Positions 46,977 to 55,271 of a stretch of 64,000 nt of DNA are shown here, one piece after another. The translations under genes were made by a program, and so were the position numbers. This stretch comes from Nitrosopumilaceae archaeon (GTDB lineage Archaea > Thermoproteota > Nitrososphaeria > Nitrososphaerales > Nitrosopumilaceae). The stretch covers positions 64,001 through 128,000 of the forward strand of contig CBDCCK010000002.1 in NCBI GenBank assembly GCA_965214835.1, in the 5' to 3' direction. Each line of letters starts with the position of its first letter. The first letter of the stretch is position 1. Under the pieces are notes generated by a model. The model searched no databases, was not told the DNA's origin, and saw only the letters and a program-made list of their open reading frames with translations.

Positions 46977-47410
46977 TAAAACACCTTTTTTTGGTTGTCT
47001 CTTGGCACTGTCGTCATGACAGTGCAACGGCACGGCATTCTTTCCCGCGCCCGGTGTGATGCTGTAAAAAAACACATGATATGGGCCAGGTGACATCCGG
47101 CCCAAATGACACATGATAGAATCTTCATGCGCCGCTATACTGCGGAAAACTGTTCTCGGACTCCCACACCTGCCTGCCTGTCAGCCTACAATAGTAGGTA
47201 ATGCAGGATTTGGAGGCCGCTGTCAGGTCACGAAAAAATTGGGGTTTGGACCGTCTACATGCGGCCCGTGTTCAGATACGCACAGTTGGGACATGCCGTC
47301 ACATGCCTCCTGCCTTCCACACCTGCCTGCCTGTCAGCCCTTTCGGGTATTGCAGGGTTTGAAAACAGTTGCCAGGTCACTAAAAATGTTGGATGCGTGC
47401 AGCCCCGAGG

Positions 47411-47758: not shown

Positions 47759-47876
47759 GTTGTTTGTTCCTTCGGACTCCCACACCTGCCTGCCTGTCAG
47801 CCTACAAAGTAGGTAATGCAGGATTTGGAGACCGCTGTCAGGTCACGAAAAAATGTTGGATGCGTTGCCCTTGATG

Positions 47877-48191: not shown

Positions 48192-48312
48192 GTTGTTTGT
48201 TCCTTCGGACTCCCACACCTGCCTGCCTGTCAGCCTACAAAGTAGGTAATGCAGGATTTGGAGCCCTTGTCAGGTCACTAAAAAATTTATGGTGTTTGAA
48301 GGAACAGGATTC

Positions 48313-48741: not shown

Positions 48742-48883
48742 TTTTTCTCCATTTGGCGTCTCACTCGCCGTGCATTTCCCACACCGGCCTGCCTGTCAGC
48801 CCCGTGCCGCAATGGGACGGGATGATGCCGGTTTGGAATGGTTGGCAGGTCATAAAAAAAATAAAGGGGTGTTACGGCCTTTT

Positions 48884-49555
48884 TCAGCAGCCGTATGACT
48901 GTGCCCACGCTTCTCGCGCGAACTCGCTTTTTGTGCAGAACCTTTCCAGTATCTCGGCATGCCCGGAGGTGACAAGCATCTCGTTGATCGAGACCGCATC
49001 GGAGCTGTAATGACAGATCACCTTTGCTATCACCCTGTCATACGAGCCGCCGGGCTGGCCGTCGTCCACGTCGTATACCGCGACGCTTCCGACCGGGCAC
49101 TTGGAGCTGACGTATGCCGTGGCATCCTTGTACCCGAACTCCCCCCTCTCGGGGGTGTTGACTAGTGCAAGCCTGACCCGCTTGCCCTCAACGTCCAGCG
49201 TGTCGCCGTCGATGATCCTCGTTACCGCACCGGCCTTCAGGCCGATTACCGATGACAGCCCGGTGCCGCTCTGGTTGAGATACACCTGGTGACGCCCAAG
49301 GGGGTCTGCAGGCCTGTCCTTGTCGTCTGCCTGCTGGCTGTCTGGCGTGCTGTGCCAGTTGCCGGATCCGCGGCGGCTTTCTGCTGCGCCTGTGAACTGG
49401 GAATCAACGGCATGGCCTATGCTGTCAACAACGCTGTCCACGCCGCCTGAAACGACTGGCGTGAAATGGGCCGAGATTGCCGGCGCCACAACGATGATGG
49501 CCATCATAAGCACCATTCCGATGATGATGGTTCCTGTTGTTCTTAGTTTGGTCAT
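48884..49555 (-). CDS. Thermonuclease (SNase-like) with N-terminal membrane anchor/signal
   Basis: VTRIIDGDTL, VRLALVNTPE, YDRVIA, INEMLVTSGHA motifs. Confidence 0.9.
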   Translation of the reverse strand: MTKLRTTGTIIIGMVLMMAIIVVAPAISAHFTPVVSGGVDSVVDSIGHAVDSQFTGAAESRRGSGNWHSTPDSQQADDKDRPADPLGRHQVYLNQSGTGLSSVIGLKAGAVTRIIDGDTLDVEGKRVRLALVNTPERGEFGYKDATAYVSSKCPVGSVAVYDVDDGQPGGSYDRVIAKVICHYSSDAVSINEMLVTSGHAEILERFCTKSEFAREAWAQSYGC

Positions 49556-49623
49556 AGACGCCCAAAAATTTGGCGTTTCGGGTCTGCATAGCCCAGTCGG
49601 GCTGACCCAATCCTCAGTATGAC
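49551..49623 (-). ncRNA. Type I hammerhead ribozyme upstream of the thermonuclease AUG
   Basis: GUCAUA CUGAGGA UU GGGUC..GACCC GAAAC GCC..GGC GUC/UAUGAC. Confidence 0.9.
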
Positions 49624-49673
49624 TGCGTTGAGTGGAAATGAAAACAAGAAAAAAGAAGGGGCGGGCGTGAGCC

Positions 49674-49919
49674 CTAGTGGAAGTCGCATCGCCGGCGGTG
49701 AAAACCGTCCCAGCGGCAGCGGGGGCATGGCAGAATCTCCGGATCGCTCAGTACCCACCGGGCAATCCAGAGATAATCGTACCTGATCAGCCAGCGTACG
49801 GCCATCCGCATGCCGCCCCTGCGGACTGCGGAGCCAAAGCACCTGAACTCCTTGAGGATGTTCCAGAGCACGCGCGCCGAGACGTGCGTGTATACGCTGC
49901 TGTTTTTGCTAGAAGTCAT
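49674..49919 (-). CDS. Small Cys-containing hypothetical protein
   Basis: 81 aa, CPRC..CDFH end, similar to the end of 50262..50636. Confidence 0.6.
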   Translation of the reverse strand: MTSSKNSSVYTHVSARVLWNILKEFRCFGSAVRRGGMRMAVRWLIRYDYLWIARWVLSDPEILPCPRCRWDGFHRRRCDFH

Positions 49920-49991
49920 AGACGCCCAAAAGTTTGGCGTTTCGGGCTTGCATGAACCCCTGGAGGGGGCTGGCCCAATCGTCAGTATGAC
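49915..49991 (-). ncRNA. Type I hammerhead ribozyme
   Basis: GUCAUA CUGACGA UU GGGC..GCCC GAAAC GCC..GGC GUC/UAUGAC. Confidence 0.9.
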
Positions 49992-50063
49992 CGTTGAGTG
50001 AAAGGAAGAAAAAGAATGGGTGGGGAGGACTTGAGGATCCTCCCGGATCGAGGAGCGAATGAC

Positions 50064-50192
50064 TCACCGGTCTGCCGGTACAGTACGTCCCAGGTTCCTG
50101 AGATAACATTCGTCCTTGAAATCTGCTATGGCTGCCAGCTCATCGGAGGTCTCAAAGTCCTCTGCTGCGCCTGTATCATAGATGTAATCCAT
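50064..50192 (-). CDS. 42-aa acidic micro-protein (also 50791..50919 and 52601..52729; truncated at 51709..51759)
   Basis: MDYIYDTGAAEDFETSDELAAIADFKDECYLRNLGRTVPADR; frame kept in three copies. Confidence 0.6.
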   Translation of the reverse strand: MDYIYDTGAAEDFETSDELAAIADFKDECYLRNLGRTVPADR

Positions 50193-50261
50193 GAGTGTAA
50201 TGTGGAAATTCTTGCAAAGTGTAAATTGTAAAAAGAAAAAAGGGGGTTGTGACTGCGGCCG

Positions 50262-50636
50262 CTAATGGAAGTTACACCACGTCCAGTACGAGCCCCAGTT
50301 CTCATCTTCCTGAACCCAGACTTTGTAACAATGGGGACACTTCACGTCAAACGGCGCCTCACGAGCCAATCGGAGAACCTCCCGGGTGCAATCCCAGAAA
50401 CGGCGCCATTTGGTTCTCAGGCTACAACCATAGCCATACCAGAGGCGCAGTTCGCAAAGGCGTTCTGCATGGCGCAGGGTACAACCGTGCAGACATGCAC
50501 ACGACTCAGGCCTGAAATTACGGTAGAGTTGATAGCAGACGCGCACCCACAGGTGTGAATAGATGCCTCTTTTTTTCACACGAGGGTATTTTGCCAGTGC
50601 TGTCTTTTCGTCGTAATAGATGCTTTTCGAAGTCAT
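50262..50636 (-). CDS. Cys-rich hypothetical protein
   Basis: Starts MTSKSIYY at the hammerhead cut site; CPHC..CNFH end. Confidence 0.62.
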   Translation of the reverse strand: MTSKSIYYDEKTALAKYPRVKKRGIYSHLWVRVCYQLYRNFRPESCACLHGCTLRHAERLCELRLWYGYGCSLRTKWRRFWDCTREVLRLAREAPFDVKCPHCYKVWVQEDENWGSYWTWCNFH

Positions 50637-50707
50637 AGACGCCCAAAAATCTGGCGTTTCGGGCTTGCGTGAGCCCCTTGCGGGACTGGCCCAATCATCA
50701 GTATGAC
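50632..50707 (-). ncRNA. Type I hammerhead ribozyme
   Basis: GUCAUA CUGAUGA UU GGGC..GCCC GAAAC GCC..GGC GUC/UAUGAC. Confidence 0.9.
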
Positions 50708-50978
50708 CGTTGAGTGAAAGTAAGAAGAAGGAAAAAAGAATGGGAGGGGAGGCCATGAGAGGGCCATCCCCGATCAAAGGTTCGAACGGCTCACCGGTAT
50801 ACCGGTACGGTACGCCCCAGGTTCCGGAGGTAGCATTCATCCTTGAAATCTGCTATGGCTGCCAGCTCATCGGACTTCTCAAGGTCCTCTGCTGCGCCTG
50901 TTTCATAGATGTAATCCATGAGCGTAATGTGGAAATTCTTGTAAAGTGTAAATTGTAAAAAGAAAAAAAAAGGGGGGA

Positions 50979-51533
50979 TCAGTCTCTGCCGAAGAGACTG
51001 TTCCATTGTGCCAGGAGGCGACCAAAGACAGGCCACGAATACCCGTCGTCGTGACAAGGATGCGCGCCATACCTTCCAACGAAGAGATCGGCCCATACCT
51101 CGCTGGCAAAACTCTCACGATTCATGAGTCCATCGGCCATCTCCCGATGGCAGTGCCTCGTGAGCGCAGAGAGGTTCATGCCGTGTTTGATGGCGTGCCC
51201 TATCCACTCGGGATCGCCGGAGCGCGGCAGCAGGTTGGCCTCGTGATGCCCAAGCTCGTGGTAGAGTGTGTTCCTGACACACGCGCCGCAGTGCTGAATG
51301 CCGCAGATGGCAATCTCCATTGAGGAAGGGTCATAGTACCCGTAACAGTCAGGTCTCGAATCTTCCACGTAAAGGAGGCAGACGCCGCGCCTCAGGTACG
51401 ACGGTATGCGAAAATACTCCTCACGGATCATCTCGACTTCGTGGACGTACGGGCGCATCTCCGCGCAGACGGACACTGCCGTCTGTGGTTGCTCGCGGGG
51501 TCGGCTATTGAAGTGGTGAACAGATGTGTTCAT
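50979..51533 (-). CDS. Zinc metallopeptidase-like protein (HExxH), copy 1
   Basis: GYYDP...LYHELGHH...SEVWADLF. Confidence 0.75.
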   Translation of the reverse strand: MNTSVHHFNSRPREQPQTAVSVCAEMRPYVHEVEMIREEYFRIPSYLRRGVCLLYVEDSRPDCYGYYDPSSMEIAICGIQHCGACVRNTLYHELGHHEANLLPRSGDPEWIGHAIKHGMNLSALTRHCHREMADGLMNRESFASEVWADLFVGRYGAHPCHDDGYSWPVFGRLLAQWNSLFGRD

Positions 51534-51601
51534 TGTAATGTGTAACATGGAAAAAATGGGGGATGGGATGCGACAAACAGCCGCATCCGGATGAGGGGAC
51601 T

Positions 51602-51691
51602 TTAGTCCCAGATTTCCCGGTCTTCGGGATCCTCTTCGAACTCGCGGATTATGCGAGGGTAAAAGGGTGTCTTTTTCTTTTTGGAATTCAT
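51602..51691 (-). CDS. 29-aa micro-protein (duplicate at 53411..53500)
   Basis: MNSKKKKTPFYPRIIREFEEDPEDREIWD followed by a hairpin and T-tract. Confidence 0.4.
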   Translation of the reverse strand: MNSKKKKTPFYPRIIREFEEDPEDREIWD

Positions 51692-51817
51692 TACTGAAAT
51701 TTCTGGAATCAGGAAATGCCAAAGTCCTCTGCTGCGCCTGTTTCATAGATGTAATCCATGAGCGTAATGTGGAAATTCTTGTAAAGTGTAAATTGTAAAA
51801 AGAAAAAAAAAGGGGGA

Positions 51818-52375
51818 TCAGTCTCTGCCGAAGAGACTGTTCCATTTGGGGAGCAGGCGCCTGTAGGTGTCCCACGAATAGTGGAAACAGCTCCATCTGG
51901 ATCCGTGCCTTCCAACGAAGAACTCTGCAAAGACTTCCCCTGCGAATGTGTGCGTGTCCATCTCGCCGCGCTCCATCTTCTGATGGCAGAACTCAGTGTA
52001 CCACGAAAGGCTCCTGCCAAACTCAAGGGATGCAGCAGTCCAGTCCGGGTGTGCCCAGAGCTTGTGCGTCTTGGAGCAGTGGTGCCCGAGCTCATGGTAG
52101 ATGAGAGACCTTACGCATCTGCGACAGTGCTGCAATCCACAGACGGTGATCGTCTGATCCGTCCAACAATAGAACCCTCCACCTTCCGGTCTGGGCCCTG
52201 CAATGTGCAGACAGCGGATACCGCGCCTGAGATCAGGGCGGACGCGAAAGTACTCCTTGCGGATTATTCTGACAGCATGCTCATGTACGAGCATTTCCTT
52301 GCTGACAGTGAACTTCGGCGTGTAGCGCTCCGGAGAGCGTCGGCATTTGAAGATGTTTGTAAACATGTTCACCAT
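51818..52375 (-). CDS. Zinc metallopeptidase-like protein (HExxH), divergent paralog
   Basis: GFYCW...IYHELGHH...GEVFAEFF. Confidence 0.75.
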   Translation of the reverse strand: MVNMFTNIFKCRRSPERYTPKFTVSKEMLVHEHAVRIIRKEYFRVRPDLRRGIRCLHIAGPRPEGGGFYCWTDQTITVCGLQHCRRCVRSLIYHELGHHCSKTHKLWAHPDWTAASLEFGRSLSWYTEFCHQKMERGEMDTHTFAGEVFAEFFVGRHGSRWSCFHYSWDTYRRLLPKWNSLFGRD

Positions 52376-52787
52376 AATGTAGAAAAATCGGGGTATCGTA
52401 GTGAGAGGTCTTGAAAAAACCTGTCACTCTGCGTTCTAGACTTTGGATTCGCGGAACCTGCGGCGGCCGGGACACTTCACACCAGCGCCGGTGCCACAGG
52501 GATTGTTGGAGGTTGTGATTCTGGAAAATCCTGAAAAACTGAAAGAAAAAGAATGGGTGGGGAGGACTTGAGGATCCTCCCGGATCGAGGAGCGAATGAC
52601 TCACCGGCTGGCTGGTACGGTACGTCCCAGGTTCCTGAGATAACATTCGTCCTTGAAATCTGCTATGGCTGCCAGCTCATCGGAGGTCTCAAAGTCCTCT
52701 GCTGCGCCTGTTTCATAGATGTAATCCATGAGTGTAATGTGGAAATTCTTGTAAAGTGTAAATTGTAAAAAGAAAAAAAGGGGTGGA

Positions 52788-53342
52788 TCAGTCTCCGCCG
52801 AAGAGACTGTTCCATTGTGCCAGGAGGCGACCAAAGACAGGCCACGAATACCCGTCGTCGTGACAAGGATGCGCGCCATACCTTCCAACGAAGAGCTCGG
52901 CCCATACCTCGCTGGCAAAACTCTCACGATTCATGAGTCCATCGGCCATCTCCCGATGGCAGTGCCTCGTGAGCGCAGAGAGGTTCATGCCGTGTTTGAT
53001 GGCGTGCCCTATCCACTCGGGATCGCCGGAGCGCGGCAGCATGTTGGCCTCGTGATGCCCAAGCTCGTGGTAGAGTGTGTTCCTGACACACGCGCCGCAG
53101 TGCTGAATGCCGCAGATGGCAATCTCCATTGAGGAAGGGTCATAGTACCCGTAACAGTCAGGTCTCGAATCTTCCACGTAAAGGAGGCAGACGCCGCGCC
53201 TCAGGTACGACGGTGTGCGAAAATACTCCTCACGGATCATCTCGACTTCGTGGACGTACGGGCGCATCTCCGCGCAGACGGACACTGCCGTCTGTGGTTG
53301 CTCGCGGGGTCGGCTATTGAAGTGGTGAACAGATGTGTTCAT
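52788..53342 (-). CDS. Zinc metallopeptidase-like protein (HExxH), near-identical duplicate of copy 1
   Basis: Part of an ~850-bp near-identical duplication (about 50884-51725 vs 52693-53535). Confidence 0.75.
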   Translation of the reverse strand: MNTSVHHFNSRPREQPQTAVSVCAEMRPYVHEVEMIREEYFRTPSYLRRGVCLLYVEDSRPDCYGYYDPSSMEIAICGIQHCGACVRNTLYHELGHHEANMLPRSGDPEWIGHAIKHGMNLSALTRHCHREMADGLMNRESFASEVWAELFVGRYGAHPCHDDGYSWPVFGRLLAQWNSLFGGD

Positions 53343-53537
53343 TGTAATGTGTAACATGGAAAAAATGGGGGATGGGATGCGACAAACAGCCGCATCCGGA
53401 TGAGGGGACTTTAGTCCCAGATTTCCCGGTCTTCGGGATCCTCTTCGAACTCGCGGATTATGCGAGGGTAAAAGGGTGTCTTTTTCTTTTTGGAATTCAT
53501 TACTGAAATTTCTGGAATCAGGAAATGCCAAAGTCGG

Positions 53538-55195
53538 CGGAGTTATATGGTGGGATAATTGTACAGGAAATGGTGATGAGGGCTCAGACTGCTCCCTGTC
53601 TTCATTGCATCGCAGTGATGCTCAGAATGAATGGTGTCTCATCATCGCCCTCGTTTGTGTAGCAGAATAATGCGGGAATCTAATCGGCAAAGCAGGTTGG
53701 AGTTATATTACAGAATAATGATTCAGGAAATGGTGATGAGGGCTCAGACAACGCCAGATTCATCATGAATCAGACTGGGGGTGTCTCATCATCGCCCTCG
53801 TTTGTGTAGCAGAATAATGCGGGAATTTTCAAAGTCAGAATGGCTGGAGTTATATGGTGGAGTGTGGTACGAAACATGGTGATGAGGGCTCAGATGTCAC
53901 GGCTTTCTTCATAGCCACGACAGGCTCGGAGATTATTGCTGATCTCGGCCCTTTGTTCTTCATCATCGCCCTCGTTTGTGTAGCAGAATAATGCGGGAAT
54001 TTTCAAAGTCAGAATGGCTGGAGTTATATGGTGGAGTGTGGTACGAAACATGGTGATGAGGGCTCAGACAACGCCAGATTCATCATGAATCAGACTGTGT
54101 GTGTCTCATCATCGCCCTCGTTTGTGTAGCAGAATAATGCGGGAATTTTCAAAGTTGGAATGGCTGGAGTTATATGGTGGAGTGTGGTACGAAACATGGT
54201 GATGAGGGCTCAGACAACGCCAGATTCATCATGAATCAGACTGTTGGTGTCTCATCATCGCCCTCGTTTGTACAGCATAATTTGCAGAAGTTTCTGCTTC
54301 AAAGTTGGCTGGAGTTATATGGTGGAGTGTGGTACGAAACATGGTGATGAGGGCTCAGACTGATCTCTGTCGTCATTGCATCGCAGTGATGCTCAGTATG
54401 AATGGTGTCTCATCATCGCCCTCGTTTGTGTAGCGGAATAATGCGGGAATCTAATCGGCAAAGCAGGTTGGAGTTATATTACAGAATAATGATTCAGGAA
54501 ATGGTGATGAGGGCTCAGATAGGTAGCTGTCTTCATTCACGAAGTCAGAATAACAGGCTGTCATCATCGCCCTCGTCTGTGTAGCGGAACAATACGGGAA
54601 TCTCGGCGGCAAATCAGGTTGGAGTTATATGGTGGGATGATAATTCAGGAAATGGTGATGAGGGCTCAGACTGACTCGACCGTCATTGCATCACAATGAT
54701 GCTCCGGATGAATGGAACTCATCATCGCCCTTGTTTGTGTAGCGGAATAATACGAAAATCAAAAGTTAGAATGGCTGAAGTTATATGGTGGAGTGTGGTA
54801 CGAAACATGGTGATGAGGGCTCAGAATGCTAACTGTCTTCATTCGTGAAGTCAGTATAACAGGCTGTCATCATCGCCCTCGTTTGTGTAGCAGAATAATG
54901 CCGGAATGACCGGGTTGGAGTTATATTGCAGAATGATGATTCGGGAAATGGTGATGAGGGCTCAGACCTATAGCTGTCTTCATTCGTGAAGTCAGAATGA
55001 ATGGAACTCATCATCGCCCTCGTTTGTGTAGCAGAATAATGCGGGAATCTAATCGGCAAAGCAGGTTGGAGTTATATTGTGGAATGATAATTCAGGAAAT
55101 GGTGATGAGGGCTCAGATAGGTAGCTGTCTTCATTCGTGAAGTCAGAATGAATGGAACTCATCATCGCCCTCGTTTGTGCAGCGTAATAATGCCG
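53538..55195 (-). ncRNA. Tandem array of 11 box C/D guide RNA units (53578-53652, 53738-53799, 53884-53973, 54058-54119, 54204-54265, 54349-54423, 54509-54574, 54660-54732, 54815-54880, 54956-55021, 55107-55172)
   Basis: Each unit reads GAGGGC-G-AUGAUGA(C)-guide-CUGA(D')-loop/stem-AUGA(U/A/C)GA(C')-guide-CUGA(D)-GCCCUC, with K-turn geometry and roughly 10-13-nt guides; D' is variant (CCGA, CGGA) in units 3 and 8. Confidence 0.93.
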
Positions 55196-55271
55196 GGATG
55201 GATCTGTATCTCAATCAAGTCGGACAGTCAGTTGCAGGGGGGTATAATGCTCAAAAAATGGCTGGTTTTGC

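Follow-up and report, generated by a model that had tools for sequence, protein, structure and literature searches.

Why should an RNA predicted to cleave itself be placed so that the cut falls a single base before a start codon? The question is raised three times on the minus strand of a 64,000-nucleotide (nt) stretch of a Nitrosopumilaceae archaeon (assembly GCA_965214835.1, contig CBDCCK010000002.1, positions 64,001 to 128,000), which is called the window below and numbered from its own first base. Three copies of one element, designated HH1, HH2 and HH3, carry the features of type I hammerhead ribozymes and stand directly before three open reading frames (ORF A, ORF B and ORF C, respectively). 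The answer that we consider probable, with confidence somewhat above even, is that HH1-3 are paralogous type I hammerheads that would make near-leaderless mRNAs out of read-through or polycistronic transcripts. Ribozyme-made leaderless mRNAs had been proposed in a preliminary description of the window; consensus fit, recurrence at start codons, covariation, the N-termini of SNase-like proteins and promoter geometry favour the proposal, while the failure of the Rfam models and the poor constraint on ORF C count against it.

The three elements occupy positions 49551..49623 (HH1; core, fold and descriptor), 49915..49991 (HH2; core and descriptor) and 50632..50707 (HH3, with a GCAA tetraloop on its distal hairpin), all on the minus strand. 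Stem I, of 6-7 bp, pairs the 5' strand GUCAUA with the 3' strand UAUGAC that follows the GUC triplet; the core strand CUGANGA is followed by a UU insert, by stem II and then by GAAAC. Stem II consists of 4-5 G-C-rich pairs, a second (distal) hairpin and a bulge of 5-7 nt on the 3' side, the whole region spanning 33-37 nt, and stem III of 5 bp (ACGCC/GGCGU) closed by a 9-nt loop. As in the three-helix type I arrangement, the open helix is stem I, with stems II and III closed, and all copies have C3 U4 G5 A6 N7 G8 A9, G12 A13 A14, the A15.1-U16.1 pair and GUC (H17 not G), with N7 being G in HH1, C in HH2 and U in HH3; in these stems 94.3% of cells are paired. By rule, stem II of a hammerhead directly follows A9; in each of the three elements, however, two U residues separate A9 from G10.1. 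The predicted cut falls between 49557 (C17) and 49556 (U1.1) in HH1, between 49921 and 49920 in HH2, and between 50638 and 50637 in HH3. The corresponding ATG codons (49555-49553, 49919-49917 and 50636-50634) lie in the 3' strand of stem I, and the start codons of ORF A, ORF B and ORF C begin one base past the cut. The hammerhead-like features are thus confirmed where the preliminary description had located them: its type I hammerheads with these core bases, three different N7 residues and a UU insert are all present on the minus strand, and its cleavage products beginning at 49556, 49920 and 50637, with the AUG inside stem I, agree with the predicted geometry.

Such a match is hardly expected by chance. 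The pattern CTGANGA..GAAACGCC has three matches against 0.02 expected, a number reached in none of 100 shuffles, and a full hammerhead descriptor (core, G/A-rich junction bases, three stems, 0-2 nt insert; both strands) retrieved HH1-3 only from the 3,222,539-base genome and nothing from four reversed-sequence controls; a rough analytic estimate for this loose descriptor is ~0.1 chance match per genome. HH1-3 are paralogues with 87-89% mean column identity, and therefore count as one event rather than as independent matches. Within the core, N7 is the sole variable site, with three different bases, and the remaining differences lie in loops, in the distal hairpin or in a compensatory stem II pair (pair 4, U-A in HH1 and C-G in HH2 and HH3). 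The distal stem II hairpin has three different sequences and loops, and is always paired. Variation between strains follows similar lines: a variant HH2 (run X5) differs in the stem II distal loop only (49961 deleted, 49965 G>A), and the variant protein P0001, read through HH3, implies one change, in the stem III loop.

The insert itself has precedents. The hammerhead of the viroid CChMVd, as presented in the portion of the report available (PMC1636495), naturally carries an extra base at this position and is still active. Among relatives of the archaeon, the position holds one extra U in a hammerhead of genome G019 (HH-a) and GU in one of genome G389. Two type I hammerheads with UU after A9 were found on a viral contig (L105, ~951-1010, +) and a metagenome contig (L200, ~2791-2860, +); they form a lineage unrelated to HH1-3, with different stems III, and both are followed by a terminator-like hairpin, not by a start codon. 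The pattern CTGANGATTGGG..CCCGAAAC matched 7 stretches in viral contigs, one of them a real hammerhead (L105), and at least 120 stretches in metagenome contigs, with one real hammerhead among the matches listed (L200); its 99 stretches in genome contigs (~130 by chance) were rejected, none fitting a hammerhead once stems were required. The lineage of HH1-3 showed no further member in genome contigs, in viral contigs or among the metagenome matches listed. By sequence, HH1-3 are best classed as a hammerhead variant with an insertion in the core, expected to act as hammerheads do, and not as certified Rfam members.

Predicted folding favours the hammerhead no more than mildly. The minimum-energy fold of HH1 is the three-way junction (-27.9 kcal/mol, z -2.35); its hammerhead-constrained fold has -25.4 vs -26.9 kcal/mol for the minimum, and for HH1-3 without flanks the constrained fold lies 1.5-2.8 kcal/mol above the minimum. 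As a duplex, stem I is weak (-4.5 kcal/mol) and should release its product. No pairing partner was found for the conserved AUGCA-like bulge (5-7 nt) on the 3' side of stem II. As a separate observation, pairing is possible between CUCAA, a 5' flank that does not vary, and the UU insert together with the GGG of stem II (49600-49640, 49966-50005 and 50682-50722, -), and also between the 5' strand of stem I and the CUGA of the core, this alternative hairpin being present in the flanked minimum-energy folds. The CUCAA hairpin, which offers no covariation by which to test it, could compete with ribozyme folding or regulate it.

The arrangement recurs in the family. Relatives were searched with RF00163 (Hammerhead_1; gathering score 34 bits) over 151 genomes of the order and with a canonical type I pattern ending in N-ATG over 401 genomes, both searches sampling the groups; the unpublished genomes G220, G565 and G221 are counted in some tallies, and no claim depends on them. 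RF00163 revealed a cluster in G019, which belongs to another genus of the same family, with matches of 35.4, 33.8 and 28.2 bits, one of which passes the gathering score; weak matches at L235, L237, L238 and L240 were rejected for want of a GAAA core. Four intact canonical type I hammerheads and a fifth, decayed copy lie within 2.6 kb of G019, all directly before ORFs, and the predicted cut of the intact ones falls 1 nt before the ATG in three and 2 nt before it in one; the ORFs behind them have 56, 93, 39 and 26 amino acids. The decayed copy (L244 ~121-166, -), in which GAAA has become UAAA and stem II is broken, precedes an intact copy of the 39-amino-acid ORF and is a natural 'dead ribozyme' control. 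This cluster is related to that of the window, for it contains a homologue of ORF A (E=9e-15), C/D-box small RNAs (sRNAs) and a conserved structured element that is also present in the window. The N-ATG pattern gave 16 matches vs 4 in a backwards control. Eight of the 16, from G019, G031, G178, G464 and G389 (all of one family, f1), are sound, with a stem I of 4-8 bp and ORFs of 39-234 amino acids; the other eight, with a stem I of 0-2 bp, were rejected. Because this search demanded an ATG, it gives no frequency of the arrangement among all hammerheads; the G019 cluster, found without that requirement, has the arrangement too. Start-codon hammerheads are thus known in five genomes of the family besides that of the window, with different hammerhead sequences, and in G178 ~42 nt separate the upstream stop codon from the hammerhead.

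What is held constant across these sequences is the position of the start codon. The stem I sequences were tabulated by script, a joint MAFFT alignment of the window and G019 hammerheads having been out of register and discarded. Among nine distinct stem I types from six genomes, AUG occupies positions 1.2-1.4 in eight and 1.3-1.5 in the ninth, while the pair 1.1-2.1 occurs as U-A, G-C, A-U and C-G and the pair 1.5-2.5 changes too. An AUG fixed among covarying neighbours argues most strongly for a link to translation. Bacterial hammerheads present a contrasting picture. A pattern derived from stem II of G019, applied to 185,579 species genomes, returned 12 matches in 10 loci, three from G019 and nine bacterial. 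In the bacterial ones the first plausible ATG lies ~14-40 nt past the cut, in some with a Shine-Dalgarno (SD)-like word before it, and none of the nine has a usable ATG at +2 (one reads UUAUGC, and its frame stops after five codons).

The gene behind HH1 allows the start codon itself to be examined. ORF A (48884..49555, -) encodes 223 amino acids of an SNase-like nuclease, membrane-anchored or secreted (Pfam SNase, E=5e-05, 24.1 bits with a cut-off of 21; PHROG endonuclease, 2.1e-15), in keeping with the thermonuclease that the preliminary description had placed behind the first element, and its coding score of 0.371 is typical for genes of this genome. A search for loci related to ORF A returned no relative. 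In G031, G464 and G389 the hammerhead is likewise followed by an orthologous gene, for an SNase-domain protein of 224-234 amino acids. Relatives of the SNase-like protein were scanned at 29 loci, one locus from an unpublished genome having been dropped: a hammerhead abuts the ATG in G389, G031 and G000 (the archaeon's own genome) and at none of the 26 other loci, most of which match the C-terminal domain only. Full-length orthologues lacking a hammerhead start at the homologous residue but have leaders, with an AAGGUGA word 8 nt before the ATG in G178 and an AGAGGU word before a GTG start in G305. The agreement among orthologue N-termini marks the stem I start codon as the true conserved N-terminus; the same gene apparently has a leader in some genomes and, in others, a ribozyme that would take the leader away.

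The other two ORFs are of a different kind. ORF B (49674..49919, -), behind HH2, is a Cys/Arg/Trp-rich orphan of 81 amino acids without a Pfam or PHROG match; its coding score (0.119) is modest, yet it is the top of the six frames, and four of its seven variant sites in run X5 fall at third codon positions. ORF C (50262..50636, -), behind HH3, is an orphan of 124 amino acids, weakly similar to ORF B (E=0.001 over 39 amino acids), with one relative, near-identical, among 5.8 billion proteins, and with an ambiguous coding score (-0.118); in the other strain (X5/P0001) it shows a 2-nt deletion and non-synonymous changes only. ORFs A, B and C are unrelated or barely related to one another, and the similarity of the three loci stops at ATGAC. 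The idea of a portable expression cassette consequently holds in part: the three ORFs of the window do share the element, but across genomes it is mostly tied to one gene family.

Whether an mRNA beginning at or next to its start codon would suit this archaeon was judged from promoter geometry in 666 long ORFs with an unambiguous first ATG. In 275 of them, vs 138, 81 and 73 in control windows, a TATA-like tetramer began within -34..-25 of the ATG, and in 63, vs 29 in the control window, an SD-like word lay at -18..-7. Over the whole genome the peak of TATA-like words is at -33..-25 relative to ATGs, and promoters placed as for a transcription start at the ATG are several times commoner than SD sites, which suggests that many genes of this archaeon are leaderless.

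The elements themselves seem to depend on transcripts from upstream. None of the three spacers before HH1-3 contains a TATA-like word of this genome's promoter kind, and the spacer of 45 nt between the stop codon of ORF B and stem I of HH1 offers neither room for nor sign of a promoter; the ribozymes must therefore be transcribed from the upstream units, through U-rich tracts. These C/U-rich tracts lie at 49634..49660 (-), between the ORF B stop and HH1, at 50000..50030 (-), upstream of HH2 and after a small ORF of 42 amino acids, and at 50716..50752 (-), upstream of HH3 and after a G+C-rich hairpin 3' of a second copy of the small ORF. They had been called T-rich and terminator-like; a C/U-rich tract does precede each copy, but a scan for bacterial-type terminators found none in all and flagged none of the three, so that 'terminator-like' refers to U runs alone. 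The unit upstream of HH2 (50064..50245, -; coding score 0.50) comprises the acidic 42-amino-acid ORF (50064-50192) and a promoter-like stretch, and that upstream of HH3 (50791..50975, -; coding score 0.48) comprises the ORF at 50791-50922 and a like stretch. Copies of this unit (repeat family D3) have TTTA at -33 from the ATG, followed by a hairpin and the C/U-rich tract, and the unit at 50064..50245 is, from its position and promoter-like sequence, the likely source of the transcript entering HH2. The small ORF, which has no family match, is also found at 52601-52729 and, truncated, at 51709-51756 (-).

From the sequence and fold match, the placement, the recurrence and the covariation described above, we infer that the tract is transcribed and that the RNA is then cleaved, released and translated, in the following order. 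HH1-3 would be transcribed inside longer minus-strand RNAs that run through the C/U-rich tract, starting from the promoter of the 42-amino-acid ORF for HH3 and HH2 and belonging to the ORF B transcript for HH1. Once the 3' strand of stem I is made, the ribozyme would fold, with the start codon locked in the 6-bp stem I, and would cut itself after C17, leaving a 2',3'-cyclic phosphate on the upstream fragment, on which, because of the type I layout, the whole ribozyme stays. The downstream product would be 5'-HO-U-AUG; its weak stem I would fall apart and free an mRNA with a one-base leader, to be translated by the leaderless route that is apparently common in this archaeon. A gene with neither promoter nor SD site of its own could thus be expressed from the transcript of another unit.

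A number of results weigh against this reading. The preliminary description had pointed to Infernal and the Rfam hammerhead models as a check, and the outcome was adverse: at gathering score the models matched nothing in the window, at E<=10 they matched nothing on 49300-51000, and RF00163 at E<=10 matched nothing in the whole genome, because two U residues separate A9 from G10.1 and stem II is long and bulged. A covariance model built from HH1-3 themselves (model R1) recovered only these three from the archaeon's own genome, plus a disregarded match at E=6.45, and no copy in 60 relatives. The compensatory stem II change to which attention had been drawn is indeed present; alone, with three sequences, it is not significant, one compensatory pair being reached in 147 of 500 shuffles. 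When 40-nt flanks are included, competing folds of HH1-3 are 3.3-5.8 kcal/mol more stable. To our knowledge there is no known test of a two-base insert beside the A9-G12 pair. Fast hammerhead cleavage at cellular Mg2+ needs a tertiary contact between stems I and II, and none is evident here, stem I being without loop or bulge. With ORF C poorly constrained and ORF B an orphan, two of the three 'genes' are uncertain. Nor is cutting at the AUG the sole use of hammerheads in the family, since a conserved type I hammerhead of genera g6 and g11 (L255, L256, L257, L258, L260, L239 and L261), standing before one gene, leaves a leader of 22-27 nt with a strong GAGGUGA-like SD; one hammerhead of G063 leaves a leader of 12 nt. 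The chemistry of the product raises a further point. According to the parts of the study available (PMC11698992), in Saccharolobus a leaderless mRNA carries a 5'-triphosphate that acts like a -1 base, and a 5'-OH end makes the initiation complex less stable. Such an end is a genuine problem for the proposed ribozyme-made mRNA; the retained U may offset it by playing the part of the -1 base.

The most probable of the alternatives grants active ribozymes and places the selected role elsewhere, with the AUG as a tolerated by-product. The upstream RNA, a small-ORF mRNA here and a C/D-box sRNA precursor in relatives, would gain a defined and structured 3' end bearing a cyclic phosphate; or neighbouring units would be insulated from each other; or the downstream RNA would be protected by its 5'-OH from decay that depends on the 5' end. 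It draws on the type I layout, which leaves the entire ribozyme on the upstream fragment, on C/D-box sRNAs located ~40 nt upstream of start-codon hammerheads in G019 (sub-cut-off Rfam matches) and G389 (motifs by eye), on the SD-led hammerhead of the same family, and on clustered prophage hammerheads, which the consulted portions of PMC3088659 read as transcript processing, with no mention of translation. We consider it unlikely, because it leaves unexplained both the AUG at 1.2-1.4 in eight of nine stem I types with covarying flanks and the retention of a leader in the bacterial relatives. A slightly less probable account holds that HH1-3 are decayed or never-active look-alikes, serving as a leader hairpin that hides the start codon (repression) or being simply a repeated DNA junction between cassettes. 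The failure of the Rfam models, the UU insert in the core and the more stable competing folds in flanked RNA would all fit, as would the decayed G019 copy before an intact gene, by which such decay is seen to happen, and the conservation of recent paralogues may reflect their youth. Against it, the differences among the copies avoid the 13 fixed core bases and N7 alone varies (estimated chance ~0.01), the distal hairpin has been remodelled three times and is still a hairpin, and a UU or GU insert recurs in otherwise sound hammerheads.

It is more doubtful still that successive hammerheads excise units of 364 nt (49920..49557) and 717 nt (50637..49921) that are joined, in the manner of viroid-like RNAs and retrozymes, into circular RNAs, closure being brought about by the reverse reaction of the ribozyme or by an archaeal RtcB ligase. 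RtcB joins 5'-OH and cyclic-phosphate ends, and the shared GUCAUA/UAUGAC would let the 5' end of an excised unit restore stem I by pairing with the ribozyme that the unit carries 3'. For clustered bacterial hammerheads Perreault et al. (PMC3088659), in the part of their paper that was available, raised circular or spliced products but could not detect them. Moreover, the hammerheads before the SNase genes of G031, G464 and G389 are single, without a partner in the loci examined, and a circle has no 5' end, which leaves the fixed AUG unexplained. The formation of near-leaderless mRNAs remains the reading that we prefer.

The structured element shared by the window and the G019 cluster deserves separate mention. 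This R2 element, of ~100 nt, combines a multi-helix fold with a U-tract and an invariant GUGACCUGACA, and occurs in the window at 47146-47247, 47299-47396, 47762-47862, 48195-48294 and 48761-48869 (-), between co-directional genes just downstream of the nuclease gene behind HH1. Of the 19 pairs that RNAalifold predicted from 10 copies in 4 genomes, 10 show compensatory changes. The element matches nothing in Rfam and is a candidate new structured RNA. Its covariance model (R2) found five copies in the archaeon's own genome and copies in 9 of 101 genomes of the family (G000 included). In G019, G031 and G178 these copies are grouped next to the hammerhead loci, and before SNase orthologues of G178, G431 and G019 the R2 element replaces the hammerhead. 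It is conceivable, though we hold it with less than even confidence, that hammerheads are a regular means of expression in Nitrosopumilaceae, replacing promoter and ribosome-binding site in fast-changing cassette arrays, with the R2 element as an alternative processing or leader module.

The surroundings of HH1-3 have this array-like character. Between ~45 kb and 53.5 kb the window's genes form an array read in one direction, on the minus strand; they are small and for the most part orphans, and repeats are numerous. Three paralogous ORFs with a HELGHH motif (50979-51896, 51818-52375 and 52788-53531, -), one of which weakly matches the phage metalloprotease family phrog_87 (E=8.4e-05), are each followed by a small-ORF unit, their 3' ends being 98% identical over 300 nt. 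A loose end of run X5 at 50006, considered as a rearrangement, was rejected, as it matches the flank of a 97%-identical repeat copy at 52543-52784. At 51600-51690 (-) a peptide of 29 amino acids, without a ribozyme before it, resembles by eye the 26-amino-acid peptide of G019 HH-a (L244 2397-2477, -), the two sharing ..PRI.REFE.DPED.EIW. A tandem array of ~10 C/D-box sRNA-like units with ~150-nt spacing follows at 53560-55270 (-), one of which (53741-53796, 45.7 bits) passes the Rfam model snoPyro_CD. PADLOC, run on 10 proteins, assigned none to a defence family.

In the present case a function is suggested by the geometry: in different genera the predicted cut keeps its place one base ahead of the start codon, while compensatory substitutions alter the surrounding helix, and the lineage is one in which leaderless translation seems, from promoter geometry, to be common. 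If the proposal is true, archaea would have a new way of expressing internal genes that lack promoters, and these loci would give a direct handle on the acceptance of 5'-OH mRNAs by archaeal ribosomes. As the Rfam models miss HH1-3, the UU-insert core also widens the range of sequences that hammerhead searches should accept.

Leaderless mRNAs arise by endonucleolytic processing elsewhere, in the tRNA punctuation of human mitochondria and, as is debated, among the MazF products of E. coli. There, as proposed here, a cut puts the start codon at or near the 5' end; it is made by protein enzymes in those systems, and would be made by the RNA itself in the present one. With Rfam Hammerhead_1 (RF00163), HH1-3 share the type I topology and the core, and they differ from it by the UU and the long bulged stem II. 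The CChMVd (+) hammerhead has its extra base, A10, between A9 and G10.1, at the position of the UU insert; according to the portion of that report available (PMC1636495, citing De la Pena & Flores 2001), it is a type III viroid ribozyme in which one base only is added, and the extra base serves viroid structure. The hammerhead arrays of prophages, as far as described in the accessible sections of Perreault et al. (2011; PMC3088659), also place several hammerheads of the same orientation between single genes or short groups of genes, with a proposed cutting into gene-length mRNAs, and self-cleavage of three was shown in vitro; these sections describe no link to start codons or translation, whereas in the window the cut lies 1 nt before the AUG and the AUG within stem I. 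The main text of that paper, in the parts consulted, does not treat a start codon in stem I or leaderless translation, and its Dataset S1 may list family members. The same source presents HHphage of the haloarchaeal viruses HF1 and HF2, which, like HH1-3, is archaeal, has a core insertion and stands just upstream of a gene, with a mapped transcript 5' end within 3 nt of the cleavage site; it differs in lying 13 nt upstream of the start codon, which is thus outside stem I, in having its insertion near C3 and stem I instead of after A9, and in requiring very high salt (PMC3088659). In the literature searches, within the partial texts they returned, leaderless mRNAs produced by ribozymes occurred solely as laboratory tools, with no natural case. 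One such tool, which also serves to make 5' ends uniform, is a type I hammerhead set before an AUG to yield a 5'-OH mRNA starting at the AUG, as given in the available part of PMC11698992; it is engineered, whereas the arrangement described here is apparently natural and conserved, and, if the proposed reading is true, would be the natural counterpart of the laboratory trick.

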